A stretch of DNA of 64,000 nt from Deltaproteobacteria bacterium (GTDB taxonomy: Bacteria > Desulfobacterota > GWC2-55-46), in the NCBI GenBank assembly GCA_019912665.1, contig JAIOIE010000021.1:135679-199678 (forward strand), read 5' to 3'. Shown here in pieces: positions 11,958 through 57,923 of this stretch (its first letter is position 1; each line of letters opens with the position of its first letter). The position numbers and the translations under genes were made by a program. The notes under the pieces are model-generated. The model saw only the letters and a list, made by a program, of their open reading frames with translations, searched no databases and was not told the origin of the DNA.

Positions 11958-12270
11958 GCCGACGCTGTACGTGTTCGGATAGACGAGGGCAAGCCTCAGC
12001 TTTCCTCCGTGCTCCTTGTAGGCGGTCCCGCGCTCGATTGAGAGCGCCTCCCTTATCTTTTTTTTAATGGACCAGGATATTGTGCTGCCTCCGGGCGATA
12101 ATACAAAGCATCCTTGAAATTATCCCATAGCGGTGGCGGGTTTACAAGGCGGGAAGGAGGGCAGGCCGCGCCCTCTGGGAAAAGCAGGCGAGGGCGCGGC
12201 GAAAGAACCCGGAATCGATTCTGTCCTTTTCTTATTACGGCCACAGCCTCTTCCGGCGGGCAAACAGCAA

Positions 12271-12400
12271 CTCTGAAAATTAGAGATTTTTCCCGCAATC
12301 AAGGAAGGCCGGGAATAAAAAGCGGAGCATATATTAATAATATATGAGCATTTTTATTCCCGTAACTACGCAGAGTCCGGGAAAAAGATCAATTTTTAAG
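12271..12400 (+). repeat. Copy 2 (long form) of the three-copy intergenic repeat, immediately 3' of ftsZ.
   Basis: CTCTGAAAATTAGAGATTTTTCCCGCAATCAAGGAAGGCCGGGAATAAAAAGCGGAGCATATATTAATAATATATGAGCATTTTTATTCCCGTAACTACGCAGAGTCCGGGAAAAAGATCAATTTTT. Near-identical to 44136-44270. Confidence 0.8.
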
Positions 12401-30623: not shown

Positions 30624-30694
30624 CGCTTATCTTCCCCGGTCTGCATGGAATCAGCAGGTTTAGGAATGCATTTCATTCCACTTGGGGGCCTCTT

Positions 30695-30721
30695 ATACCA
30701 CTTAATACCACTTTATACCAC
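30695..30721 (-). promoter_or_regulatory. Putative MraZ operator: three direct GTGGT repeats at 10-bp phasing upstream of mraZ.
   Basis: On the minus strand the sequence is GTGGTATAAA GTGGTATTAA GTGGTATAAG (plus strand ATACCAC x3 at 30695, 30705, 30715), 70-100 bp upstream of the mraZ ATG. MraZ is known to bind three phased GTGG[G/T] repeats in Pmra. Confidence 0.6.
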
Positions 30722-31089
30722 ACGCTGGTCAACTATATTCCTGATGAAATTCTTTGTCAAGGGAAATCTAAGAAGGTAAGGCTTCAGAAATTCTCGGGAA
30801 ATCAGCCGCATTCAACTTATAGTAGAAGGGATCTCAAGGGATACTATTAGTGGGGTCTCAACTCGGGTGAGCGGCAAAAATCCTTCGAAAATTCAATCCA
30901 AAGGAGGTGTTGAGGCCGTAAGTGGGATTACCGTGCGGTTTCTATTATTTTCGAGTTTGTTCAGGGGGAGCGCAATCAGGAACTGACAGGCGCATTGTTT
31001 TTGAAAAGTCTCTATTTTTAGCTCATCTCTTTTCGAGATGCATTCTGCCGAGCGCCCGAAATAGGGAAGGCGAACCGGCTCATATCGGC

Positions 31090-43994: not shown

Positions 43995-44135
43995 TTGTAC
44001 CCCCCTTTTTAATTCTTGGAATCCGGGCCGCCCTATCCCCTGTAAATCTGAGTATAACCCCGTTCCGGGCCGTGTCAATCCGCATTAAACCCTAAAGATT
44101 TCCTGCCCGTTTCCGATAAATCTGAGTGGAGGCAA

Positions 44136-44270
44136 CCTCTAAAAATTAGAGATTTTTCCCGCAATCAAGGAAGGCCGGGAATAAAAAGCGGAGCATATAT
44201 GACAATATGTGAGCATTTTTATTACCGGCCTGACGCAGAGTCCGGGGAAAAGATCAATTTCTGGAGGTTG
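44136..44270 (+). repeat. Copy 3 (long form) of the three-copy intergenic repeat, in the divergent DUF1540/HD-GYP intergenic region.
   Basis: CCTCTAAAAATTAGAGATTTTTCCCGCAATCAAGGAAGGCCGGGAATAAAAAGCGGAGCATATATGACAATATGTGAGCATTTTTATTACCGGCCTGACGCAGAGTCCGGGGAAAAGATCAATTTCTGGAGGTTG. Same orientation as copies 1 and 2. Confidence 0.8.
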
Positions 44271-44305
44271 TCTGGATAAAATCGCCCTCCGGACGGCTTA
44301 AATAT

Positions 44306-45553
44306 ATGATGAAAAAAATAAGACTTTCTGAGCTGGAAAAAGGCATGTATGTCTGCGGCGTCGAGAAGCGCGGCATGAGCCCGGTTTTCCTCGTGAATGA
44401 CATCCTCGTGCGCTCGGATGACGACCTGACGAGGATGTCCGCCAGGGGATACGCCCATGTATACATTTCACTGAATGAAAAGGAAGCGGCCCAGCACGCG
44501 GCAAATGACGGGGACGGGGCCGCAGGAGCGCCTTTTTACCCCGGAACAGAAACGCTCACGGCTGCAGATGAAGGGGCCCAAGGGGCAGAAAGCGGCAAAG
44601 ACAACCCGTCCGACCCGTATCGCGAGTTCAAGAAAGAGCTTGCGGAAGCCGAGGACATCCGGCATGACGCCGAGCAGGTGGTTAGGGACTTCCTCCAGAA
44701 CGCCAGGTCCGGGCAGAGTATAGACTCGGACAGGGTCCTCGAAACCGTCGGCCGCATGGTCGACTCGGTAATAAGGAACCAGGACGCGCTCACTAGCCTT
44801 GCAAGGCTCAAGAGCTTCGACGATTACACCTTCGCTCATTCCGTGAACGTGTGCATACTCTCGCTCGCGGTCGGCAGGCACCTCGGGCTCGAGAAAGACG
44901 ACCTCGACCAGCTCGGCCTGGGGGCCATACTCCACGACATAGGGAAGATGCTCGTGCCAGGAGACCTCCTTAACAAGCCCGGCCGCCTTAGCGAAGGCGA
45001 GTTCACGGTCATGAAAAAGCACACGGAGCTCGGCAAGGACGTGCTCGCAGGTATGAAATGCGTGAAGGAGCCCGCTTTGAGGGTGGTGCTCGAGCACCAC
45101 GAGCGCTTCGACGGGAGCGGCTACCACATGCGGCTTTCAGGAAGCGGCATACACCTCTACGCGCGCATAACTGGAATAGCCGACGTGTACGATGCGATGA
45201 CCAGCAACAGGGTCTACCAGAAAGGCATGCGCCCGGAGGACGCGCTCAAGAGGCTATACCATTCAAGAGGCTCCCTCTTCGACCCGGAACTTGTAGAGAG
45301 GCTCATAAAATGCCTGGGGGTCTACCCCATCGGGACCTGCGTAGAGCTCAATACAGGCGAGGCGGCCATCGTCAATATGATAAACCACTCGCACCCGCTT
45401 AAGCCCCGCGTGCTCCTTATAGCGGACAGGGAGGGCCTGCCTTTCCCCGTGCCCCTGGAAACCGACCTCAAGGAGGACGCCGGGAGGTGGATCGTCGGGT
45501 CTAAAAAGCCCGAGGAATTCGCCTTCCATATCCCTGCCCTCTGCGCCAACTGA
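44306..45553 (+). CDS. HD-GYP-type metal-dependent phosphohydrolase (likely c-di-GMP phosphodiesterase) with a variant GYH motif.
   Basis: 415 aa. HD domain (AHSVNVCILS...LGLGAILHDIGKMLVP) followed by LEHHERFDGSGYH, which is HHExxDGxGYP with P replaced by H. Confidence 0.85.
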   Translation: MMKKIRLSELEKGMYVCGVEKRGMSPVFLVNDILVRSDDDLTRMSARGYAHVYISLNEKEAAQHAANDGDGAAGAPFYPGTETLTAADEGAQGAESGKDNPSDPYREFKKELAEAEDIRHDAEQVVRDFLQNARSGQSIDSDRVLETVGRMVDSVIRNQDALTSLARLKSFDDYTFAHSVNVCILSLAVGRHLGLEKDDLDQLGLGAILHDIGKMLVPGDLLNKPGRLSEGEFTVMKKHTELGKDVLAGMKCVKEPALRVVLEHHERFDGSGYHMRLSGSGIHLYARITGIADVYDAMTSNRVYQKGMRPEDALKRLYHSRGSLFDPELVERLIKCLGVYPIGTCVELNTGEAAIVNMINHSHPLKPRVLLIADREGLPFPVPLETDLKEDAGRWIVGSKKPEEFAFHIPALCAN

Positions 45554-48019: not shown

Positions 48020-49402
48020 ATGAAGCTTACTTTCGTCGGCGGAGCGAGCACCGTAACAGGCTCCTGCTACCATATCGAGGTCGGAAAATTCAAATTCCTC
48101 GTCGAGTGCGGCCTTCACCAGGGCATAGGCTCCGATGAACTAAACAGGCACCCCTTCCCCTTCGACCCGGCATCGCTCGATTTCATATTCGTAACGCACG
48201 CCCACATAGACCATTCCGGGATGCTCCCGAGGGCAGTGAGGGACGGCTTTAAAGGGACGATAATCTCGACGGCGGCGACAAGGGACCTCCTTGAGCCCAT
48301 GCTCTATGACGCGGCGAGCATTCAGGAGAGCGACAGCGAATGGGCGACGAGAAAGGCGCTCCGCTCAGGCAAGCCCCCGCAAGAGCCCCTTTACACGAGC
48401 GAGGACGTCGAGCGGGTACTCCCCCTTTTCGAGATAAAGGAATACGACAAGGTCTATCACCTCGGCCCGGGCGTGAAATACCGTTTCCTGGACGCCGGGC
48501 ACATATTGGGCTCGGCCTCGCTTGAGATATGGTATCAGGACAGCGCCGAAGAGAAAAAGATAGTCTTCTCAGGCGACATCGGCAAGAAGGGCAACCCCAT
48601 AATAAAAGACCCATCGGCGCCTGACCTCGCGAATTACGTGGTGATGGAGTCCACTTACGGCAACAGGTCGCACAAGCCCCTCAATGAATCCATAAACGAG
48701 CTCGTTAGCGCCATCAAGACGACATTCAGGAAGGGCGGGAACGTCTATATTCCCTCCTTCGCGGTCGGCAGGGCCCAGGACTTACTCTATATTCTCAATA
48801 ACCTGGTGCGTGAGGGCCGTCTTTACAGGATAGACGTCTACCTCGACAGTCCCCTTGCCGAGGCTGTTACCAAGATCTATGTAGCCCATCCCGAATGCTT
48901 TGACGAGGAGGCGCGCCATCTCTTCACCACCAAGCAGTCTGATTCGTCGATAAGGCTCCATTTCGTCCGGACGGCCGAGGAGTCGATGAAGCTAAACAGG
49001 CTCCGCTCCGGGAACATCATCATAGCCGGAAGCGGCATGTGCGAGGGCGGCAGGATAAAGCACCATCTCAAGCACAACCTCTGGCGCTCGGAGTGCAGCG
49101 TCATCTTCGTCGGCTACCAGGCAAAGGGCACTCTCGGAAGGAAGATCGTGGACGGCGCGAAGTCCGTGACCGTTTTGGGAGAGGAAGTGCTCGTCCGCGC
49201 CTCCATCCACACCATAAACGGCTTTTCCGCCCACGCGGGCAGGGAGGGCCTGCTTGATTGGCTCTCGGACTTCGACGACTCGCCGGAGATATTCATCGTG
49301 CACGGCGAGGACGAGGCCGGGGAATCGTTCGCGGGGCTTATAAAGGAGAAGTACGGGTTTGCTACCAGGAGACCGCAGAACGGGGAGACGGTGGAGATAT
49401 AG
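48020..49402 (+). CDS. MBL-fold beta-CASP family RNA-metabolising hydrolase.
   Basis: 460 aa. HxHxDH motif (THAHIDHSG), beta-CASP motifs, and a C-terminal RNA-specificity-like region (GFSAHAGREGLLDW). GGAGGG SD. Confidence 0.85.
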   Translation: MKLTFVGGASTVTGSCYHIEVGKFKFLVECGLHQGIGSDELNRHPFPFDPASLDFIFVTHAHIDHSGMLPRAVRDGFKGTIISTAATRDLLEPMLYDAASIQESDSEWATRKALRSGKPPQEPLYTSEDVERVLPLFEIKEYDKVYHLGPGVKYRFLDAGHILGSASLEIWYQDSAEEKKIVFSGDIGKKGNPIIKDPSAPDLANYVVMESTYGNRSHKPLNESINELVSAIKTTFRKGGNVYIPSFAVGRAQDLLYILNNLVREGRLYRIDVYLDSPLAEAVTKIYVAHPECFDEEARHLFTTKQSDSSIRLHFVRTAEESMKLNRLRSGNIIIAGSGMCEGGRIKHHLKHNLWRSECSVIFVGYQAKGTLGRKIVDGAKSVTVLGEEVLVRASIHTINGFSAHAGREGLLDWLSDFDDSPEIFIVHGEDEAGESFAGLIKEKYGFATRRPQNGETVEI

Positions 49403-49409
49403 TTTTTTT

Positions 49410-49480
49410 GTAGGTGGGTTGAGCGAAGGGAAAACCCGACGATGTTCTTTGTAGGTTGGGTTAGCGCAGCGTAACCCAAC
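49410..49480 (+). repeat. Two REP-like hairpin elements beginning with GTAGG, upstream of the RAYT pseudogene.
   Basis: GTAGGTGGGTTGAGCGAAGGGAAAACCCGAC (imperfect) and GTAGGTTGGGTTAGCGCAGCGTAACCCAAC (a perfect 9-bp stem GTTGGGTTA/TAACCCAAC). Both carry a 5' GTAG as in REP sequences. Confidence 0.7.
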
Positions 49481-49491
49481 AAGAATACAAG

Positions 49492-49986
49492 ATGCAATAT
49501 CGGAGAACACAAACAAAAAGCGGCTCGTTCTTTTTTACCGTCGTGACTCATGAGAGGCAGCGGATATTATGCCTTGATGAAAACATCCTTCTTTTAAAGG
49601 ATGCATTCAGCCATGTCATGGCAAAGCACCCGTTCACCATCGACGCATTCGTTTGCCTTCCGGACCACATCCATTGCGTCTGGACCATGCCGGAAAACGA
49701 CGGGGATTTTTTCTACTCGCTGGCGTCTTATCAAGAGCCACTTCAGCGCACTGGTAGCGGGCAGACAATGAAGCAACCCGGACGGCTTCCCGCATAAAAA
49801 AGGCGAGCAGGGCATTTGGCAGCGGCGTTTCTGGGAACACAGCATACGGGACCAGAGTGATTTTAACCGGCATATCGAATATATCCATTACAATCCTGTC
49901 AGGCACGGGATTGTAAAGTCGCCCAGGGATTGGCCGTATACAAGCTTTCACGAATATGTAAATGACGGGACCTTAACCATCATTGG
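49492..49986 (+). pseudogene. REP-associated tyrosine transposase (RAYT, IS200/IS605-like Y1 HuH transposase) disrupted by a frameshift and an in-frame stop.
   Basis: Frame 1 (49492-49797) encodes MQYRR...FVCLPDHIHCVWTMPENDGD, containing the HuH motif. A T6 run at 49707-49712 shifts into frame 2, which continues FSTRWRLIKSHFSALVAGRQ, then an in-frame TGA at 49769-49771, then SNPDGFPHKKGEQGIWQRRFWEHSIRDQSDFNRHIEYIHYNPVRHGIVKSPRDWPYTSFHEYV (catalytic-Tyr region), ending at 49986. Confidence 0.8.
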
Positions 49987-50023
49987 GGAGCAGGCGAAAA
50001 TATAGAATTCGACGACTATGTCG

Positions 50024-50055
50024 GGAATGAATGATTGTTTTGGGTTACGCTTCGC
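50024..50055 (-). repeat. REP-like hairpin in inverted orientation downstream of the RAYT pseudogene.
   Basis: TTGGGTTACGCTTCGCTAACCCAACCTAC is the reverse complement of GTAGGTTGGGTTAGCGAAGCGTAACCCAA, giving the REP-RAYT-inverted-REP layout. Confidence 0.7.
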
Positions 50056-50241
50056 TAACCCAACCTACGAGACCATCATAAATCACAAAATATCCCCTGT
50101 AATTTAAAAAAGCTTGCGAAACTCAATAATTACACTCGACACACACCAGAGATGTATTGTTTTTAATTCGTTTAAATTAACGTTTGACAAAAAAAGTTTA
50201 AAATTATAGATTAAAACTTAATTAAATACTGGAGGGGCTAT

Positions 50242-51126
50242 GTGAAAAGATATTTCTTAATTGTTTGTGGGGTCTTTTTCTTGAATTGCAAAAATACAGC
50301 ATACGCTAATAATGCCCCTGAGCAAGCGACTTCTCCGACTGAAAGGACTCATCTTGAAGAAGTATTCACGCCATGCAAGAAAAAAAATGGTTCCGTTAAA
50401 GAAAATTGCAAAAAAACAGAAAAGCCTTATTATATTGATTTGATGATGGGGGTAGATTATGCATTAGAGGCTAAAGACGAGAATGGAAACAATACTCAAA
50501 ATAATTTTTCAGACGGTAAATTCAATATAGGGCTTACTGCGCATCAAAAATTTAATGCTTATGAAAGTGCAGATCTTTCCCTCTCATCATACCGTGGCTT
50601 TTTGACAGTGAAATTGGCTAGCGCTTCTGTTGAAATCCCAGAAAATGGAGATTCCCAGGTTTTGACTGAGCAAAGATCCTTAGGTATACAAGGAGGATTA
50701 TTTTGGGGATGTCGTTTAAATAAAGATAACCAGAGTTTAAATTTTCAAAGCTATGAAATAGGACCCATAATAAAATTCGGAGGACAAACTTCCGAAATTA
50801 AGGATCAATTAATTACAAGCGGATCTTTGCAGGTTAGGATTTTGCAGACAGGTAAATGGGTAAATGGGGCATATCTCGATGTAGGCTACGGTTTTAATGG
50901 AGCACTCGAGAACGAAGGCAGATGGAAACTAGATGCATTTTTGCCAATTGAAGGGTTACAGCTGAATGGTTCCTATCTAAATTTATTTTTAGCAACCAGC
51001 GTAGAAAGTGATTTGGGAAATAAAAAAGATTTAGTTACATTTAGCGTCGGAACGTTTATAGATTTTATAAGTCTGGGAAAAGCTCTAGGCAATATTTTCA
51101 GTGCAGCTGGAATAAATTTAAATTGA
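50242..51126 (+). CDS. Low-GC (foreign) lipoprotein, predicted beta-rich outer-membrane/surface protein of unknown function.
   Basis: GTG start preceded by a GGAGGGG SD. Signal peptide with lipobox (FFLNC). 294 aa rich in N/S/G/K with alternating hydrophobic patterns (GYGFNGALENEGRWKLDAFL..., LVTFSVGTFIDF). Local GC is visibly far below the flanking DNA. Confidence 0.7.
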   Translation: MKRYFLIVCGVFFLNCKNTAYANNAPEQATSPTERTHLEEVFTPCKKKNGSVKENCKKTEKPYYIDLMMGVDYALEAKDENGNNTQNNFSDGKFNIGLTAHQKFNAYESADLSLSSYRGFLTVKLASASVEIPENGDSQVLTEQRSLGIQGGLFWGCRLNKDNQSLNFQSYEIGPIIKFGGQTSEIKDQLITSGSLQVRILQTGKWVNGAYLDVGYGFNGALENEGRWKLDAFLPIEGLQLNGSYLNLFLATSVESDLGNKKDLVTFSVGTFIDFISLGKALGNIFSAAGINLN

Positions 51127-51367
51127 GTTGTTGAAAATTAAGAGTAACGATATGTAATCATGCTGCGAGTGCTGCGCGACACTGTTCTCATTTAAGCCGC
51201 TTTCTTGCTCTCCCTCACCTCCCTCTTTTTGAGTTTAGTCTTGCGCTGTGCGCGCCATTCCCAATGTACAGCCGATTAAACCTCTTGACTCCCCTCTCCA
51301 CCCCCTTACACTCTAAGTAAAGCCCCTTGTATCCGAAAATTGATTTAATCCGGCTTTTTCTCGAATC

Positions 51368-52312
51368 ATGCAAAAGATAAAGCTCGGCATAAGCTCGTGC
51401 CTTCTGGGAGAAAAGGTGCGCTATGACGGCACGCACCAGAGGGACAGGTACATAACCGACACCCTCGGGAAATACTTCGATTGGCTGCCGGTCTGCCCGG
51501 AGGTGGAGTACGGCCTTCCGGTGCCGAGGGAGGCCATGCGCCTGAAGGCAGGCCCCGAGGGCCAGCGCCTCGTGACCCGAAAGAGCGGCATGGACCACAC
51601 TGAGGGCATGCGCGCATGGGTGAAGGAAAGGCTCGACGAGCTTGAGAAGGAGAATCTGTCGGGCTTCATCTTCAAGGCCAAATCTCCAAGCTCCGGCCTT
51701 TACGGAGTGAAGCTCTATGGCCCTTCGGGGCCGCCTTCGAAAAAGGGGGTTGGGCTTTTCGGAGGCGCGTTCGCCGAGCGCTTCCCCCTTGTGCCTGCCG
51801 AGGACGACGGCAGGCTCCACGACCCGGCCCTCCGCGAAAACTTCATAGAGCGCGTCTTCGTGTACCGGAGGTGGCAGGAGCTGATGCGAAAGCCGGGTGC
51901 AGCCCGCCTCGTGGACTTCCATACCCGGCACAAGCTCCTCATCCTCGCGCACAGCCCGAAGCATTATGCGCTCCTTGGAAAGATCACAGCCAGGGCCGGA
52001 AAATCCAGGGCAGAAAAGCTATACTATGAATACGCCGGAAGCCTCATGGAAGGGCTCCGCATAGTCGCCACGACCAGGAAAAACACCAACGTCCTTTACC
52101 ATATCATGGGGTATTTCAAGGAAAGGCTCTCAGCCCCTGAAAAGAAGGAGTTGCTTGAGGTCATTGGCAACTACCACAACGGGCTTATTCCCCTTATCGT
52201 GCCGATAGTGCTCGTTAACCACTATGTCCTCCTGTTCAAAGAGCCGTACCTCGGGAGGCAATATTACCTTAACCCGCACCCGATAGAGATGATGCTAAGA
52301 AACCACGTGTAG
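51368..52312 (+). CDS. ybgA: DUF523/DUF1722 (YbgA-like; TudS-family Fe-S) protein commonly encoded upstream of photolyase.
   Basis: 314 aa. N-terminal DUF523 (MQKIKLGISSCLLGEKVRYDGTHQRD...CPEVEYGLPVPRE), then a C-terminal DUF1722-like region. Immediately followed by phr, as in ybgA-phr operons. Confidence 0.8.
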   Translation: MQKIKLGISSCLLGEKVRYDGTHQRDRYITDTLGKYFDWLPVCPEVEYGLPVPREAMRLKAGPEGQRLVTRKSGMDHTEGMRAWVKERLDELEKENLSGFIFKAKSPSSGLYGVKLYGPSGPPSKKGVGLFGGAFAERFPLVPAEDDGRLHDPALRENFIERVFVYRRWQELMRKPGAARLVDFHTRHKLLILAHSPKHYALLGKITARAGKSRAEKLYYEYAGSLMEGLRIVATTRKNTNVLYHIMGYFKERLSAPEKKELLEVIGNYHNGLIPLIVPIVLVNHYVLLFKEPYLGRQYYLNPHPIEMMLRNHV

Positions 52313-52318
52313 GAGCGC

Positions 52319-53659
52319 ATGTTCGAAGGAAGGTACGAGACCCTGAGGGAGGGAACTTCGCGGAAAGGCCCGGTCGCCTACTGGATGAGCCGCGACCAGA
52401 GAGCGCGTGACAACTGGGCGCTCCTCTTTGCCCAAGCGCTCGCAATCGAACGGAAGGCCCCGCTTATCGTGCTCTTCTCTCTAGCCCCGGCCTTTCTGGG
52501 GGCCGCGCTCAGGCAGTACGGGTTCATGCTCCGGGGGCTGAAGGAAGTCGAGGAAAGCCTTGCCGAGAAGTCCATCCCGTTTGTCCTCATAAAGGGCGAA
52601 CCGCCGGAAGCGGTGCCGAGCTTCATCAAGCGATATAAAATATCCGAGCTTGTTACCGACTTCGACCCCTTGAAGATAAAAAGGGGCTGGCAAGACGCCG
52701 TAGCCTCAAGGATAGACATACCCCTTCACATGGTAGACGCGCATAATATCGTGCCTTGCAGGATAGCCTCGTCAAAGCAGGAGTTCGCGGCGCGCACCTT
52801 CAGGCCCAGGATACAGGCAAGGCTCGGAGACTATCTCACCGATTTTCCCCGGTTAAGAAAGCACCAGCACCATATTGGGATCAAGGCCGGTTTCGACCTT
52901 GAAAAGACCATTTCCGGACTCGCCGTCGACAGCACGGTCAAAGAGGTGGACTGGCTGAAACCCGGAGAGACCGAAGCGGCTAAAGCGCTCGAAGACTTTA
53001 TGGAAAAGAAGCTCGACAGGTATGCCGAAGACAGGAACGACCCGACGAAGGACGGGCAATCAAACCTCTCGCCGTATCTCCACTTCGGGTATATAGCGGC
53101 ACAGCGCGTCGCGCTTCAAGTAATGCGAAAGGGCGCGGATGGTGAGGGCAAGAGGGCCTTCCTTGAAGAGCTTATCGTCAGGAAGGAGCTTTCGGACAAC
53201 TTCTGCCTTTATAACCGCGACTACGACAGCATAACGGGTTTTCCAGCCTGGGCAAAGAAGACATTGAATGCGCACGCGGGAGACAGGCGCGAGTTTATCT
53301 TCTCCCTCGACGAGCTTGAGAACGCACGCACCTACGACCCGCTCTGGAACGCCTCCCAGATGCAGATGGTGAAGACCGGGAAGATGCACGGCTACATGCG
53401 CATGTACTGGGCCAAGAAGATACTCGAATGGAGCGAATCGCCGGAGGCCGCGCTCAGGAATGCCATCTACTTGAACGACAAATACGAGCTCGACGGCAGG
53501 GACCCGAACGGGTATGCCGGGATTGCATGGGCCATAGGCGGGGTGCACGACCGCGCGTGGGCTGAAAGGAAAGTAACGGGGAAGATACGGTACATGAGCT
53601 ACAGGGGCAGCAGGTCGAAATTCGATGTTGACGCATATATCCGGAGGTGGGCCGGATGA
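52319..53659 (+). CDS. phr: Deoxyribodipyrimidine photolyase, class II CPD photolyase.
   Basis: 446 aa. The N-terminal GPVAYWMSRDQRARDNWALLFAQ is the class II photolyase signature. The C-terminal FAD-binding helical domain carries WAKKILEW and GYMRMYW motifs. Confidence 0.9.
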   Translation: MFEGRYETLREGTSRKGPVAYWMSRDQRARDNWALLFAQALAIERKAPLIVLFSLAPAFLGAALRQYGFMLRGLKEVEESLAEKSIPFVLIKGEPPEAVPSFIKRYKISELVTDFDPLKIKRGWQDAVASRIDIPLHMVDAHNIVPCRIASSKQEFAARTFRPRIQARLGDYLTDFPRLRKHQHHIGIKAGFDLEKTISGLAVDSTVKEVDWLKPGETEAAKALEDFMEKKLDRYAEDRNDPTKDGQSNLSPYLHFGYIAAQRVALQVMRKGADGEGKRAFLEELIVRKELSDNFCLYNRDYDSITGFPAWAKKTLNAHAGDRREFIFSLDELENARTYDPLWNASQMQMVKTGKMHGYMRMYWAKKILEWSESPEAALRNAIYLNDKYELDGRDPNGYAGIAWAIGGVHDRAWAERKVTGKIRYMSYRGSRSKFDVDAYIRRWAG

Positions 53660-53745
53660 AGGCCGCCACTTGACTACCACCTCCTTTGCTCTAAACTCTA
53701 AATAAGGCCCCTTCCCGCCCTCCCTCTCCAATTGCGAGGTTTTTC

Positions 53746-54582
53746 ATGGCCCGTCCCATCTGGAAAGGCTCCATAAGCTTCGGCCTGGTAAATATCCCTG
53801 TCGGTCTCTTTACAGCCGAAGGCAAGGAGAAAAAGCTCGACTTCCACCTCCTCGATAAGAACGACCTCTCGCCCGTGGGCTACAAAAAAATAAACAAGCG
53901 GACCGGGAAGGAGGTCGGCACCGGCGAGATGGTGAAAGGCTACGAGTTCGAACGGGGGCAGTATGTCGTCCTCTCCGAAGAAGACTTGAAGCGCGCCAAC
54001 GCCAAGGCCACCCAGACTGTCGAGATAATCGACTTCGTGGACTCGAAAGACATACACCCCATATTCTTCGAGAAGCCCTATTTCCTCGCGCCCGTGGGCA
54101 GGGGCGAGAAGGGTTACGCGCTCCTACGTGAGGCGCTTAAAAAGACCGGAAAGGCCGGGGTAGCAAAAGTCGTCATACACTCGAAGGAATACATCGGGGC
54201 CGTGGTCCCCTACGGAAAGGTGCTCGTCCTTGACCTAATAAGATACGCCGACGAGCTCAAAAAACCGGAAACTGTCGAGGTGCCTGAAGAGGACCTTAAA
54301 AAACTCGGCGTGACGGAAAAAGAGCTTGAGATGGCGGAAAGGCTTGTCGAGTCCATGATATCCGACTGGCAGCCTGACAAATACCACGACACCTACAGGG
54401 ACGAGCTCCTCTCATACATAAAAAACAAGATCGCCGCAGGCGAGACTGCCAGGGTCGAGGAGGCAGCAGCCCCGCCGCCCCCGCCCGCCGCGGAGGTCAT
54501 CGACCTCATGTCGCTCCTTAAGAAAAGCGTCGAGGAGACCGAGGCCGCGAAGGTCAAGGCCCGGAAGGCCTCGGGCGGGTAG
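53746..54582 (+). CDS. ku: Non-homologous end-joining protein Ku.
   Basis: 278 aa, MARPIWKGSISFGLVNIPVGLFTA..., Ku core beta-barrel with a C-terminal basic tail. Followed directly by ligD. Confidence 0.93.
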   Translation: MARPIWKGSISFGLVNIPVGLFTAEGKEKKLDFHLLDKNDLSPVGYKKINKRTGKEVGTGEMVKGYEFERGQYVVLSEEDLKRANAKATQTVEIIDFVDSKDIHPIFFEKPYFLAPVGRGEKGYALLREALKKTGKAGVAKVVIHSKEYIGAVVPYGKVLVLDLIRYADELKKPETVEVPEEDLKKLGVTEKELEMAERLVESMISDWQPDKYHDTYRDELLSYIKNKIAAGETARVEEAAAPPPPPAAEVIDLMSLLKKSVEETEAAKVKARKASGG

Positions 54583-54591
54583 CCCCGGCAG

Positions 54592-57162
54592 ATGGGGAGC
54601 GAAGCGCGAAACGACGGCCTCGGCGAATACCGCCGGAAGCGCGATTTCAGCCGCACCCCCGAGCCCGAAGGCCAAGTCGCCGAAGGCCCGGCGGGCGTAT
54701 TCGTCATCCAGAAGCATTCCGCACGAGCCCTCCATTACGATTTCCGTCTCGAACTCCACGGCACACTTAAAAGCTGGGCTATCCCCAAAGGCCCTTCCCT
54801 CAATCCCGAAGACAAGCGACTTGCGGTGCATGTTGAAGACCACCCGCTTGAGTACGCCGGTTTCGAGGGAGTCATCCCGAGAGGAGAGTACGGCGGCGGG
54901 ACTGTAATCGTTTGGGACAGGGGCTTTTGGCTGCCCGAAGAAGACCCGAACAAGGGACTTCAAAAAGGAGCGATGAAATTCATCCTTTCCGGCAAAAAGC
55001 TCCGGGGCAGGTGGGCGCTCGTGAGGCTTAAACCACGCGCGGACCAGACGGAGGAAAAGGACGAATGGCTCCTTATCAAGGAAGCGGACGGAGAGGCCAA
55101 CGTCACGGGCGATATAACGGCTGAAAGGCCGGAGAGCGCCGTAAGCGGGAGGACTATCGAAGAGGTCGCGGCGCTTCCCGAGGGCATATGGGGCGGCAAG
55201 GAGAATGCAGCCAGGGTTCTACCGTCCGAAGCGCAATACCGGAAAAAGCCCATGCCCGGAATGATGCGGCCCGCGCTCGCCACCCTGGTCGATGCGCCGC
55301 CAGCCGGTGAAGGATGGCTCCACGAGCTCAAATACGACGGCTACAGGATACTCGCGAAGATACGGGAAGGCAGCGTCCGGCTCATCACCCGTAACGGGAA
55401 CGACTGGACGGATAAGTTCCCGTCCATAGCCGGGGCGCTCTCCCGGCTTCCATTTGATGGGGCATGGCTCGACGGCGAGGTCGTATCCATGGGCGAGGAC
55501 GGACGAACGAGCTTCGAAGGCCTCCAGCACGCGCTCGCCATGAAGAGCGACGAGGGACTCACATACATGCTCTTCGACGTACTCTATTACAACGGCTATT
55601 CCCTTGAAGCCGCGCCCCTTTATGAAAGGAAGCTCCTCGTGGAGTCTATACTCAAATCCGAGAGGGCCGACAAGAGGCTCCTCCGTTTCAGCGGCCATGT
55701 GGAGGGCAAGGGCCCTGAGTTCTTCGAGCACGCCTGCGCCTACAGGATAGAGGGAATAATCTCTAAAAAGAGGGACGCGCCCTATGTGGAAGGGCGGTCC
55801 ATGTCGTGGCTCAAGGTGAAGTGCCTCTTAAGGGACGAGTTCATCATAGGCGGATACACGGAGGCCGGAGACGGGAGGAGGACAGGTTTCGGCGCGCTCC
55901 TCATAGGCGCATACGCCCCTGATGGAAAGCTCATCTACTACGGAAGGGTCGGGACGGGCTTCAGCGAACGGTCCATATCCGAGGTCTGGGAGCGCCTTAA
56001 GCCGCTTGAGACGCCGGAGCCTCCGTTCCATCACCCGCCGTCAGGTGCAGAGGCAAAAGGCGTGCACTGGGTAAGGCCGGAACTCGTTGCGGAAGTGGAA
56101 TACAGGCAGCGGACTGCGGAAGGCGTATTGAGGCACGCATCTTTCCAGGGCCTCCGGGAGGACAAGCCCGCAAGCGAGGTGGTCTCCGCGGACCCGCTCC
56201 GGGCAAAAGAGGCCGTGGGGCCGACTGAAGAAACGCTCGCCCCGCCGCCATCCATCGAGCCGGGGCCTGCCAGGATAATAAGGAGCGTCCGCGTAACAAA
56301 CCCCGGCCGGGTCTTTTACCCGGAGGAAGGGTACACGAAAGCCGACCTCATAAACTACTATGAAGCGGCCGCTCCTCTTATGCTCCCGCATCTTGCAGGG
56401 AGGCCCCTTACGCTCGTTCGCTGCCCCGACGGCATCGGAAAGGAATGCTTCTTCCAGAAGCACTCGGTCAATACCATTCCTTCGGAACTGAAGCGGATCG
56501 CCCTTGCCGAGAACGACGGCACGCAAGCCGAGTACCTGATGGTGGATACGCCAGAAGGCCTCGTGGCGCTCGCCCAGATAGGCGTGCTTGAAATTCACAC
56601 ATGGAACAGCCGCCATGTGAAAGTCGAGTACCCGGACAGGCTCGTCTTCGACATAGACCCTGACGAGGGGGTCGGATGGGACCGGCTTGTTGAGGCCGTC
56701 TTCCTCATGCGGGCGCTCCTTGAGGAGCTTGGATTAAAGAGTTTTGTCAGGGCTACCGGGGGCAAGGGGCTCCATGTCGTGGTCCCGGTCCTTCCGGTAA
56801 GGGACTGGGATGAGATAAGGGATTTTACCAGGGCTGTTGCGGAGTTCGTGGCCCGTGGCCTTCCGGACAGATTCACCTCCATGATGACGAAATCCAGAAG
56901 GGCCGGGAGGATATTCATCGACTACATGAGAAACATAAGGGGCGCAACCGCCATAGAGGCCTATTCGACCAGGGCCAAGCCGGGCGCTACAATCGCCGCG
57001 CCCCTCGGCTGGGACGAGCTCATGCTCTACGGGCCGGGCTCCTTTACGCTTGCCAATATGAAAGAGCGCATAAGGGAAGCCGGGAACCCCTGGGAAGGAT
57101 ACATGAACGTTAAGCAGCCTGTGACGATCGAGATGGAAGAGAAGATAGGGCTCCGGCGCTAA
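54592..57162 (+). CDS. ligD: Multidomain ATP-dependent DNA ligase D: phosphoesterase, ligase and polymerase/primase domains.
   Basis: 856 aa. N-terminal PE domain (FVIQKHSARALHYDFRLE...HVEDHPLEY), central ligase with motif I (ELKYDGYRIL), C-terminal LigD polymerase domain (VRVTNPGRVFYPEEGYTKADL...). Confidence 0.93.
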   Translation: MGSEARNDGLGEYRRKRDFSRTPEPEGQVAEGPAGVFVIQKHSARALHYDFRLELHGTLKSWAIPKGPSLNPEDKRLAVHVEDHPLEYAGFEGVIPRGEYGGGTVIVWDRGFWLPEEDPNKGLQKGAMKFILSGKKLRGRWALVRLKPRADQTEEKDEWLLIKEADGEANVTGDITAERPESAVSGRTIEEVAALPEGIWGGKENAARVLPSEAQYRKKPMPGMMRPALATLVDAPPAGEGWLHELKYDGYRILAKIREGSVRLITRNGNDWTDKFPSIAGALSRLPFDGAWLDGEVVSMGEDGRTSFEGLQHALAMKSDEGLTYMLFDVLYYNGYSLEAAPLYERKLLVESILKSERADKRLLRFSGHVEGKGPEFFEHACAYRIEGIISKKRDAPYVEGRSMSWLKVKCLLRDEFIIGGYTEAGDGRRTGFGALLIGAYAPDGKLIYYGRVGTGFSERSISEVWERLKPLETPEPPFHHPPSGAEAKGVHWVRPELVAEVEYRQRTAEGVLRHASFQGLREDKPASEVVSADPLRAKEAVGPTEETLAPPPSIEPGPARIIRSVRVTNPGRVFYPEEGYTKADLINYYEAAAPLMLPHLAGRPLTLVRCPDGIGKECFFQKHSVNTIPSELKRIALAENDGTQAEYLMVDTPEGLVALAQIGVLEIHTWNSRHVKVEYPDRLVFDIDPDEGVGWDRLVEAVFLMRALLEELGLKSFVRATGGKGLHVVVPVLPVRDWDEIRDFTRAVAEFVARGLPDRFTSMMTKSRRAGRIFIDYMRNIRGATAIEAYSTRAKPGATIAAPLGWDELMLYGPGSFTLANMKERIREAGNPWEGYMNVKQPVTIEMEEKIGLRR

Positions 57163-57171
57163 GCTGAAATG

Positions 57172-57200
57172 GAAAAAGGCCGGAGGTCATCCGGCCTTTC
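57172..57200. terminator. Bidirectional intrinsic terminator between ligD (+) and the FKBP gene (-).
   Basis: AAAGGCCGG AGGTCAT CCGGCCTTT, a 9-bp GC-rich stem flanked by an A-run and a T-run. Confidence 0.65.
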
Positions 57201-57234
57201 AAGCCCTGAAGAGTTTTCGAAACCAAAATCAAGG

Positions 57235-57669
57235 TCAGTGGCGGACTATGTCGACCAGCTTGACCTCGAAGTTCAGGTCCTTTCCGGCAAGAGGATGGTT
57301 CGCGTCAAGGTATATTTTCTCGTTCGTGAGCTTCACGACCTTCACGATGGTCGAGCTGCCGTCGTCCTGGGTTATCTGGAGCTGCATGCCCTCCTCAGGG
57401 TCGATATACGGGGGTATCTGGTTCCTGTCGACTTCGAGAATGAGCTCGTCCATGTACGGCCCGTAGGCCTCATGCGACTGTATGTGCAGCTGCTTGGTAT
57501 CTCCGGGGTTCATGCCCACGATGGCCTGCTCGAAAGCGGGTATGAGCATGCCCTCCCCGATCACGAACTGAAGCGGGTCCCTGCCATCGGACGAATCAAA
57601 CCTTGTGCCGTCCTCGAGAGTGCCGGTGTAGTGGACCTTTACGATGTCGCCTTGCTTTGCCTGTGCCAT
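57235..57669 (-). CDS. slyD: FKBP-type peptidyl-prolyl cis-trans isomerase (SlyD-like, with an IF insert).
   Basis: Start placed at MAQAKQGDIVKVHYTGTLEDGTRFDSS... (ATG at 57669, SD GGGAGGGG). 144 aa with the FKBP fold and an inserted flap. Confidence 0.85.
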   Translation of the reverse strand: MAQAKQGDIVKVHYTGTLEDGTRFDSSDGRDPLQFVIGEGMLIPAFEQAIVGMNPGDTKQLHIQSHEAYGPYMDELILEVDRNQIPPYIDPEEGMQLQITQDDGSSTIVKVVKLTNEKIYLDANHPLAGKDLNFEVKLVDIVRH

Positions 57670-57923
57670 CTTCCCCTCCCGAAGCTTCTTTTTTATATAC
57701 AAGGAGCGCGCAATAACCCTGCCTGGCACGGCCGTTCAGGCTATAAGCGTATCCTTCCATGCTCCTCGGCCTTTACGCTTCCATACTTGACTCTAACCAC
57801 CGGCCTAAGCACTGTCAAGGGCCTTTGGTCCGGTTTCAGCGTAAATTCAAGGCCATAGGGTCACAAGCCTACCAGATGAAAGACCGTGATTCAACCAAAA
57901 ACAGAAAAAAAACGGCAGCGACT

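Follow-up and report, generated by a model that had tools for sequence, protein, structure and literature searches.

How did an AT-rich stretch of about 1.1 kb, holding a single open reading frame, come to lie in a Desulfobacterota chromosome of much higher GC content, and what does that frame encode? The initial annotation had taken it for a foreign island with a lipoprotein gene and had regarded the REP/RAYT element on its left boundary as consistent with horizontal acquisition. The evidence from the window (the whole 64-kb stretch of DNA that was analysed) is very probably best explained as a whole by recent acquisition of one gene, which encodes an outer-membrane barrel of a rare family. 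The features concerned are collected in Table 1.

Table 1. Positions, in window coordinates, of the low-GC island, the parts of its gene and the neighbouring elements
Feature	Position	Strand	Basis
Host beta-CASP/RMMBL RNase gene, left flank	48020..49402	+	Pfam; HD-NifU-(rSAM) upstream, also in relatives L004-L007
Left REPs: degenerate copy (49410-49436) and intact GTAG-headed palindromic REP (49451-49479)	49410..49479	+	Repeat scan
RAYT (Y1/HUH transposase) pseudogene	49492..50005	+	Three-frame translations; Y1_Tnp match of the reconstructed protein
Right REP	50040..50068	-	29 nt, inverted relative to 49451-49479 and 97% complementary; island starts directly after it
Low-GC island, apparently foreign, ~1.1 kb	50069..51160	.	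Right REP edge to ~35 nt past the stop; 100-nt GC and maximum-likelihood segment
Putative sigma-70-like promoter, TTGACA-17 nt-TAGATT	50184..50212	+	10/12 consensus matches, best site in the region; function assigned by consensus
Shine-Dalgarno sequence GGAGG	50231..50235	+	Read directly in the sequence; 6 nt before the GTG start
CDS, 294 aa, predicted secreted 10-stranded outer-membrane beta-barrel of a rare unnamed family	50242..51126	+	ORF, 13 homologues, AlphaFold2 (AF2), PDB fold matches
Sec signal peptide, residues 1-22	50242..50307	+	n-region MKR, h-region YFLIVCGVFFL, cleavage AYA↓NNA, signal peptidase I type
N-terminal segment, residues 23-62, with Cys C45 and C55	50308..50427	+	Family alignment; slot of TIG/FN3/HhH in other members
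Beta-barrel module, residues 63-273, ten strands	50428..51060	+	DSSP of the AF2 model, strand sequences, invariant columns
C-terminal amphipathic helix, residues 275-288, FISLGKALGNIFSA	51064..51105	+	AF2 helix 219-232 in trimmed numbering; follows the last strand, …VTFSVGTFIDF
ybgA-like gene (2-thiour_desulf + DUF1722), right flank	51368..52312	+	Pfam; host-like GC; own promoter-like site at 51285-51312

The earlier description of a strikingly AT-rich stretch of some 1.1 kb was upheld by every compositional measure applied. The GC content of the frame at 50242-51126 is 36.2% against 57.4% across the window, corresponding to a z of about -5.7 when all 885-nt sub-windows serve as the reference (mean 57.4%, sd 3.7%). 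Measured over 100 nt, GC lies at 23-44% inside the island and 55-65% in the flanks, and sliding GC showed no second sustained low-GC stretch anywhere in the 64 kb. Maximum-likelihood two-state segmentation delimited the low-GC segment at 49936-51160 (35.5% vs 56%). Codon usage falls likewise far outside the host range, with a GC3 of 28.5% vs 76.1 ± 4.0% in 38 host ORFs (z -11.9) and a CAI-like index of 0.31 vs 0.68 ± 0.05 (z -7.1).

In principle, a native gene could reach such values through the amino acids it encodes, its level of expression or a mutational bias acting locally, with no foreign origin involved. The protein is indeed rich in N, K, I and L; the N/S/G/K-rich body ascribed to it is roughly right, with leucine (11%) heading the list before G (10%), N (9%), S (8%) and K (7%). 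Nevertheless, GC2, which depends most closely on the amino acids encoded, is lowered by just 1.5 sd while GC3 lies 48 points under that of the host, and by this codon-position analysis the low GC of the gene is not an effect of amino-acid composition. The non-coding leader (50069-50241) is still more AT-rich, with 28% GC. Moreover, family members elsewhere take on the GC of their hosts, up to 72%; homologues match host GC at values from about 33% to 74%, the mismatch being found only in the window copy.

The gene order around the island points in the same direction. A backbone of HD-NifU-(rSAM)-bCASP and, further on, FKBP is conserved among relatives, and the interval between bCASP and FKBP is variable. 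In the window this interval holds the RAYT, the island, the ybgA-like gene, a photolyase gene and Ku-LigD; in L004 and L007 it is empty, and in L005 and L006 it contains Ku-LigD together with an ORF of 574-577 aa, which we take to be a cytochrome cd1 nitrite reductase. The ybgA-like gene is missing at the beta-CASP to FKBP locus in the relatives. When presence and absence were compared, as the initial annotation had proposed, the barrel gene proved not to be syntenically conserved: it is absent at the corresponding site in the four closest genomes found (L004-L007), which keep the backbone, and no homologue of it was found in any of L004-L013. Three contigs that do carry the gene (L001-L003) are 100% identical to the window. 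The beta-CASP proteins of L004-L007 are only 73-78% identical to that of the window, so that absence in these relatives dates the gain only loosely; in an interval as plastic as this one, absence in distant relatives is also weak evidence by itself against a native gene. Set beside the third codon positions, the leader and the composition of the homologues, a native origin is nonetheless extremely unlikely. The four closest homologues (P0002, P0006, P0013 and P0004) lie in DNA of 33-39% GC. Signatures of mobility speak against an import, in that no integrase ORF was seen nearby and no tRNA or convincing flanking direct repeats were found at the island; nor was any Rfam family. Recent horizontal acquisition of a single-gene island, as the initial annotation had supposed, is nevertheless well supported by the sequence data, namely by composition and codon usage, absence from the four nearest genomes and homologues that match their low-GC hosts.

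The REP/RAYT element next to the island is real. As in known REP/RAYT systems, GTAG-headed inverted palindromes flank a Y1_Tnp gene that carries the motifs HUH and YxHxNP. Three REP matches occur in the window, a number reached in 0 of 100 shuffles, and no REP copies were found elsewhere in the 64 kb beyond these three flanking the RAYT. Unlike the known systems, the RAYT is a pseudogene here, the element adjoins the island without being part of it, and the REPs in 64 kb number only three. Its frame is broken twice, by a +1 frameshift in a run of T near 49707 and by a TGA in frame near 49769, and the HUH (HIH) and YIHYNP motifs are kept. The reconstructed protein matched Pfam Y1_Tnp with 24.5 bits (cut-off 23; E 3.2e-5) over profile positions 10-120 of 121.

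It may be asked whether the island is cargo mobilised by this element, or whether both form one foreign block at 49404-51160. The island starts precisely where the right REP ends on its outer side; the RAYT too is absent from this place in relatives, and its GC of 49% is below the host mean. On the other side, the GC3 of the RAYT (59%) resembles neither that of the island (28.5%) nor that of the host (76%), and the island adjoins the REP-RAYT-REP unit from outside instead of being enclosed by its two ends. A REP-like copy is present in the nearest relative, L004, and two independent assemblies break inside REP/RAYT, suggesting that the REP is repeated elsewhere in the genome. The RAYT is also inactivated, and RAYTs are single-copy genes, mostly vertically inherited and without known carriage of cargo (PMC5581495). 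Cargo or a joint block is therefore unlikely. Of the earlier account, the existence of the element and its contact with the island stand, and its part in the acquisition is unsupported: it is a decayed, lineage-type element that marks the same plastic interval and was probably not the vehicle of the transfer.

Both the leader quoted in the initial annotation (at 50172-50228) and the 294-aa ORF on the forward strand were recovered. Imported AT-rich DNA might carry a spurious or decaying frame with no functional product, and this would fit with a codon usage extremely mismatched to the host and with the fact that no terminator was detected at the island. By contrast, the chance of 294 open codons at the composition of the island is 3.5e-11, and the product, which begins MKRYFLIVCGVFFLNC, has an intact signal peptide and keeps every residue that is invariant in the family. 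A strong Shine-Dalgarno sequence and a promoter-like site precede it. A spurious frame is accordingly very unlikely, and the barrel gene, judged by its open frame, its Shine-Dalgarno sequence with GTG start, the promoter-like site, its homologues and the conserved motifs, is real and not a chance ORF. Gene callers behind the databases place the start at a TTG, which yields 281 aa and loses the signal peptide; the GTG at 50242 is preferred because of the GGAGG in front of it.

The signal peptide bears on the question of lipidation. After the h-region it continues as NCKNTAYA↓NNA, and a rule-based reading found a single -3/-1 site, at 22/23. Neither PROSITE PS51257 nor a looser rule detected a lipobox in the barrel protein; the criterion was [LVI][ASTVI][GAS]C ending the signal peptide, with the Cys at positions 15-35 (PS51257). 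Two Cys do occur within the first 16 residues, so that the product might be pictured as a foreign lipoprotein, lipid-anchored at Cys9 or Cys16 after signal peptidase II and Lol-sorted to the outer membrane. Some phyla have non-canonical lipoboxes, which would leave room for such a protein. Yet Cys9 lies too early (before position 15) and has Val at -1, Cys16 has Asn at -1, and the signal peptides of the other members contain neither a Cys nor a lipobox. The modelled body is in addition a full transmembrane barrel, for which a lipid anchor is unneeded. The lipoprotein reading (a substrate of Lgt and LspA) was consequently rejected as very improbable, the lipobox claimed earlier being absent and a canonical signal peptidase I site being present in its stead. 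For annotation, this turns a lipoprotein into a barrel protein processed by signal peptidase I, whose signal peptide is stripped by the TTG start of the gene callers.

The beta-strand-rich outer-membrane protein that the initial annotation had envisaged was borne out by structure prediction. With a 12-sequence family alignment, AlphaFold2 predicted ten beta-strands followed by a C-terminal amphipathic helix (pLDDT 82.5, pTM 0.80); from the single sequence the prediction failed (pLDDT 33). In a Foldseek search of the PDB every match was an outer-membrane barrel, including the BrkA beta-domain (E 1e-4), OpcA (TM 0.52) and a designed 10-strand barrel (TMt 0.56). The strands of the barrel module show dyad hydrophobic alternation when even and odd residues are listed strand by strand. 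The last strand, …LVTFSVGTFIDF, resembles a beta-signal and ends …FIDF, but 21 further residues follow with the amphipathic helix, and the usual aromatic beta-signal residue is lacking at the C-terminus of the protein. In the alignment, a short helix-like C-terminal tail is conserved across the family. The contig also encodes Wzi and Wzz, consistent with a diderm envelope. The product of 50242-51126 is hence predicted, with high model confidence, to fold as a 10-stranded outer-membrane beta-barrel. The matches are generic (TM <=0.52), and for this reason function cannot be transferred from them.

Comparison with known barrels illustrates this. OpcA, an adhesin of Neisseria meningitidis (PDB 1k24, 2vdf), is likewise a monomeric 10-stranded barrel of similar size and gave the best TM (0.52/0.50). 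However, identity is about 9%, no Pfam or profile match connects the two, and OpcA has neither the C-terminal helix nor the family motifs; nothing in the comparison indicates a shared ancestry or an adhesin function. Among type Va autotransporters (BrkA 3qq2, NalP 1uyo, AIDA-I 4mee, EspP), BrkA gave the best Foldseek E (1e-4), and in the present family, too, variable modules (TIG, FN3, HhH) at the N-terminus precede a barrel at the C-terminus. The barrel here has 10 strands instead of 12, with a TM of only 0.36; in place of a long alpha-helical linker there is only a 3-residue helix before strand 1, and the window protein has no passenger. An autotransporter identity was rejected on the strand number, the missing linker and the lack of any Pfam match at E <= 10.

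Omptins, the outer-membrane proteases represented by OmpT and Pla, share the ten strands, a strand class that a 2026 preprint (bioRxiv 10.64898/2026.03.07.710327) describes as the rarest and as "often proteases". The match to Pla is weak (E 0.036, TM 0.37), and a Pfam match to omptins is lacking. The invariant columns of the family are F, R, G, N, K and P only; since none is His or Asp, no conserved residues of catalytic type are evident. The catalytic set of omptins, as in OmpT, consists of a conserved Asp/Asp and Asp/His pair. An omptin identity was also rejected, the invariant columns lacking this set and Pfam giving no match.

The family itself is rare, with 14 clusters among 1.84 billion representative proteins; at 90% identity, all 10 of the 14 clusters that were checked are singletons. 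A word-indexed homology search returned only the protein itself, and its profile versions two members and then none; the family was exposed by exhaustive phmmer, which found 13 distant homologues with 30-45% identity (E 1e-28 to 1e-4). Its motifs are GGQTSE(T), NGAYLDxGYG, (E)GFLP and E(T/S)DxGxKxD. The barrel module has no Pfam match even at E <= 10 and none in NCBIfam, PADLOC or PHROGs, in agreement with the earlier statement that no homology to a named family could be seen. Sequence and profile searches of the PDB returned nothing relevant, the sole match being a TIG-like one to cyclodextrin glycosyltransferase that came from the N-termini of other members. In those members, Pfam recognised TIG in 3, fn3 in 1 and HHH_3 in 1 ahead of the barrel, and coiled-coil modules precede it as well. 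Isolated matches to fn3/tail fibre J, LmuB and PspA probably stem from such N-terminal add-ons.

The initial annotation had thought of phage receptors and exclusion or defence factors, roles for which the analysis gave evidence neither for nor against. In its classic anatomy a moron comprises one gene under a promoter of its own, with a deviating GC content, and the island resembles this: it is a single-gene islet with aberrant GC and its own promoter-like site, placed where gene content varies and missing in relatives. It would then be a moron-like or defence/exclusion gene from a phage or mobile element, with a surface protein that blocks or alters phage adsorption. Phage genomes do encode outer-membrane barrels, and matches in BFVD reached E 1e-3 and a TM of up to 0.43, although these viral fold matches are generic; one homologue has RHS, patatin and caspase-like neighbours. 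In contrast to known islets and morons, the island is bordered by neither a prophage nor an integrase, tRNA or direct repeats, and no phage gene lies in its neighbourhood, which consists of housekeeping and repair genes. PADLOC gave no match for the window protein or its barrel module, and the module matched nothing in PHROGs. No barrel homologue was found by tblastn in plasmid or phage records (50,697 phage records, 72,556 plasmids) or by a scan of IMG/VR contigs. A moron or defence origin is therefore improbable.

Under the favoured explanation, that of a recently acquired barrel gene, the segment of ~50069-51160 would be a single gene taken up very recently, probably from a donor of low GC, and its landing site a stretch of variable content in the chromosome of a Desulfobacterota (UBA5799) bacterium. 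The imported gene would have brought its own AT-rich promoter-like site and ribosome-binding site. Its pre-protein would carry a signal for Sec and signal peptidase I, and the mature protein of ~272 aa may be inserted into the outer membrane by BAM, as general outer-membrane-protein biology suggests. In that membrane the protein would close, as a monomer, into a 10-stranded beta-barrel with a short amphipathic helix behind it at the C-terminus. The window protein represents a "barrel-only" form; in other members TIG, FN3, HhH or coiled-coil modules come before the barrel. From this form and the varied N-terminal modules of other members, a generic outer-membrane anchor or small-pore module follows as the most likely role; the surface exposure of the protein and its physiological role we infer.

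The neighbours of the homologues give further hints. A lipase-type hydrolase (alpha/beta-hydrolase or patatin) follows the family gene in four of five informative contexts, the five on which the association rests; two of these hydrolase matches fall short of the Pfam cut-offs, and no orthology links the hydrolases of different loci. All-against-all BLAST of the neighbours revealed no orthologous neighbour shared across the family loci. The hydrolases hint at an outer-membrane role that has to do with lipids or with hydrophobic compounds, and the barrel gene appears to have arrived in the window alone, without a hydrolase partner. A bolder proposal would see a new outer-membrane module, in which a 10-stranded C-terminal barrel with its trailing amphipathic helix carries N-terminal TIG, FN3, HhH or coiled-coil parts and is paired with secreted lipases or patatins. 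Such a module might serve as a new type-V-like display or docking system or as a conduit for products of lipolysis, the window holding a passenger-less copy just after transfer between phyla; we consider this unlikely.

As a feature of the genome, one imported gene in a plastic interval is an ordinary event, and the modest value of the locus lies in its protein. The nearly un-ameliorated GC3 (28.5% vs 76%) nevertheless makes it a clean natural example of DNA that appears to have passed very recently from a low-GC donor to a Desulfobacterota genome of 57% GC. For the family, a new domain of unknown function could be registered, and its structure and localisation are reasonable targets for further work.

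Two minor observations concern the occurrence of family members. One homologue adjoins RHS, patatin and caspase-like genes of the kind typical of conflict islands. Furthermore, a hand-built two-motif DNA pattern, run against metagenome data, returned one locus (L088).

The AT-rich island proposed in the initial annotation was confirmed by base composition. At about 50070-51160 the GC content drops to 23-44% (100-nt windows) in a window of 57.4% GC, and the single ORF, at 36.2% GC, lies 5.7 sd under the mean of all 885-nt windows. No second sustained low-GC stretch was found in the 64-kb window by 885-nt sliding GC. Codon usage, suggested at the outset as a check on foreign origin, was also outside the host range: GC1, GC2 and GC3 of the ORF are 43, 36 and 28.5%, versus 58, 42 and 76% (sd 3-4) in 38 long host ORFs. 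The deficit is thus 11.9 sd for GC3 but only 1.5 sd for GC2, indicating that amino-acid content is not the cause of the low GC. A CAI-like index derived from host codons gave 0.31 for this ORF versus 0.68 ± 0.05 for the host. Two short dips to about 43% GC, far weaker than the island, occur near ORF boundaries elsewhere in the window.

The island ORF is a real gene. The chance of 294 stop-free codons at island composition is 3.5e-11, GGAGG is located 6 nt ahead of the GTG start (50242), and the AT-rich leader holds the region's best sigma-70-like site. This leader, the 294-aa product and the neighbouring beta-CASP RNase and ybgA-like genes are as originally described. No rival ORF of at least 60 aa was found at the gene on either strand; the island yielded neither an Rfam match nor a tRNA, and no terminator there was convincing. 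The public gene call (P0001, 281 aa) begins at an internal TTG (50281), 13 codons downstream, and drops the signal peptide; the GTG start gives a 294-aa pre-protein with a canonical one, like the other family members. This N-terminus (MKR-YFLIVCGVFFL-NCKNTAYA/NNA) forms a Sec signal that ends in a signal-peptidase-I site. The earlier assignment of a lipobox, and with it of a lipoprotein, was not supported, since neither the PROSITE rule nor a loose version of it found a lipobox in this protein or any family member, the signal-peptidase-I site AYA/NNA is present instead, and no other family member has a Cys in the signal region.

Features of the window, of the corresponding interval in related genomes and of loci with barrel-family genes
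Feature	Location	Remarks
Low-GC block	window 49936-51160	two-state likelihood segmentation
Island ORF	window 50242-51126 (+)	294 aa
Sigma-70-like site	window 50184-50212	TTGACA-17-TAGATT
GTAG-headed palindromic REPs	window 49451-49479 and 50040-50068	inverted orientation, 97% complementary
Degenerate REP copy	window 49410-49436	
Y1/HUH transposase gene (RAYT)	window 49492-50005	flanked by inverted REPs
Short GC dips	window 30651-31000 and 44051-44350	
Repeat of about 130 nt	window 12267-12395 and 44132-44260	about 91% identity
Beta-CASP to FKBP	window 48020-57729	REP/RAYT, island, ybgA, photolyase gene, Ku-LigD
Beta-CASP to FKBP	L004, L007	empty
Beta-CASP to FKBP	L005, L006	one 574-577 aa ORF, then Ku-LigD
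Downstream of barrel gene	L088, 9519-10493	Abhydrolase_1/Lipase_3 gene, convergent with barrel gene
Downstream of barrel gene	L092, 5640-10145	alpha/beta-hydrolase, then ADC-family gene, second hydrolase, patatin gene
Downstream of barrel gene	L093, 3050-4903	617-aa alpha/beta-hydrolase-like gene
Downstream of barrel gene	JGI 3300056388 contig with P0007	patatin-AbfB gene

Sequence searches of Pfam, NCBIfam, PADLOC and the PDB with the island protein returned no match, in agreement with the first impression that it resembles no named family. When 1.84 billion cluster representatives were searched exhaustively with phmmer, 13 relatives were recovered (E 1e-28 to 1e-4, 30-45% identity), and the 90%-identity clusters looked up for 10 of them were all singletons; the family is undescribed and very rare. 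Common to its members is a C-terminal module, about 230 aa long, in which the motifs GGQTSET, NGAYLDxGYG, R.K.EGFLP and ETDFG.KPD.VTF.VG.F recur. The N-termini vary, comprising IPT/TIG domains in three members, FN3 in one and ComEA-like HhH in one (Pfam), a long region in another that reads as coiled-coil-like, and almost no addition in several, the window protein included.

Given a 12-sequence alignment of the module, AlphaFold2 predicted, with high confidence, ten long antiparallel strands with dyad hydrophobic alternation, followed by a 14-residue amphipathic helix (pLDDT 82.5, pTM 0.80). Every Foldseek match in the PDB was an outer-membrane barrel, among them the BrkA autotransporter beta-domain (E 1e-4), OpcA (TM 0.52), a designed 10-strand barrel, OmpG, OMPLA, Pla, OmpA and OmpX. 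No specific structural relative stands out among these matches, and the viral structure library yielded generic phage-encoded barrels only. From the modelled fold, the island protein is very probably an outer-membrane beta-barrel protein. Ten-stranded barrels form the rarest class, with 8,874 proteins among 571,760 predicted barrels (bioRxiv 10.64898/2026.03.07.710327). The last strand (…VTFSVGTFIDF) resembles a beta-signal and, unusually, does not form the C-terminus: a conserved helical tail comes after it. Membership of the autotransporter, omptin and OpcA families was rejected on the tests run.

Following general outer-membrane-protein biology, the protein would be exported by Sec, cleaved after Ala22, chaperoned in transit and inserted by BAM as a monomeric narrow barrel. 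Most likely this barrel would be a membrane anchor of a generic kind or a small conduit, because the same barrel bears diverse N-terminal modules elsewhere. A lipase-type hydrolase lies directly downstream of the barrel gene in four of the five members with usable flanks. The hydrolases at the different loci are not orthologues of one another, and two of the matches fall under Pfam thresholds; a lipid-related role of the family may be regarded only as a lead. The window gene is solitary; for its host it may provide a surface structure or an adhesin, change the surface in a way relevant to phages, or as yet have no role. It seems quite improbable that the barrel represents a new display or docking class linked to lipases, caught just after transfer. 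No evidence for a defence role was found (no PADLOC match). Metallophosphoesterase genes recur near barrel-family genes (L088, L093), and the contig carrying the family member P0007 also holds a 1776-aa RHS-repeat protein and two Peptidase_C14 genes.

The window matches a MAG contig of Desulfobacterota UBA5799, and two further assemblies hold the identical sequence. Related genomes were fetched with the beta-CASP protein as query, and the four closest (L004-L007, 73-78% identity in this protein) keep the backbone of HD-domain gene, NifU/DUF2249, (radical SAM) and beta-CASP, with the FKBP isomerase beyond. Because its content varies among these genomes and the window, the beta-CASP to FKBP interval is a hotspot at which genes are gained and lost. 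The 574-577 aa ORF of L005 and L006 reads as a putative cytochrome cd1 nitrite reductase. Presence of the Ku-LigD NHEJ pair varies in the lineage, the pair being absent from the interval in L004 and L007. The island gene is missing from the syntenic site in L004-L007, and none of the related genomes L004-L013 encodes a relative of its product; it is therefore lineage-specific.

Among family members, gene GC is 34% in P0002, P0006 and P0013 (in 33-39% GC DNA), 38% in P0004, 43-48% in P0010 and a P0003-like gene in L088, 54-62% in P0005 and P0008 (in 65% GC DNA) and 72% in P0014 (in 74% GC DNA). Only the window copy mismatches its host, the others matching theirs. This mismatch, and a GC3 that has hardly ameliorated, speak for a very recent import, the donor having been of low GC. 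Composition, codon usage and absence in relatives thus support the horizontal acquisition originally put forward. Neither an integrase nor a tRNA was found at the island, direct repeats do not bound it, and its protein has no homologue in plasmid, phage or IMG/VR collections. In genomic terms the horizontal acquisition is an ordinary one, of a single gene.

The REP/RAYT element noted at the left boundary of the island is real, as the repaired RAYT protein scores above the Pfam cut-off for Y1_Tnp across the full profile and retains the HIH and YIHYNP motifs; the part in acquisition that its position seemed to imply was not supported. The RAYT is a pseudogene: near 49707 a +1 shift in a run of T disrupts the frame, and near 49769 a TGA interrupts it in frame. 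Its GC3 of 59% falls between host (76%) and island (28.5%) and fits neither, the island sits outside the REP-RAYT-REP unit, the nearest relative has a REP-like copy, and RAYTs are reported to be single-copy genes with predominantly vertical inheritance (PMC5581495), all of which makes the element a very unlikely vehicle of the island. The two are therefore regarded as neighbours that share a plastic interval, and their adjacency is not taken for an acquisition mechanism. The 64-kb window holds three REP copies only, and two assemblies made independently from this organism (L002, L003) end inside REP/RAYT, at window 49453 and 49511, which suggests further copies elsewhere in the genome.

Another sequence, of about 130 nt, occurs twice in the window, one copy (44132) lying just upstream of the HD-domain gene. 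Scanning of this copy gave no Rfam match. The repeat includes an imperfect palindrome (…AATAAAAAGCGGAGCATATAT / ATATGTGAGCATTTTTATT…) and may represent either a regulatory site common to both places or a small repeat element.
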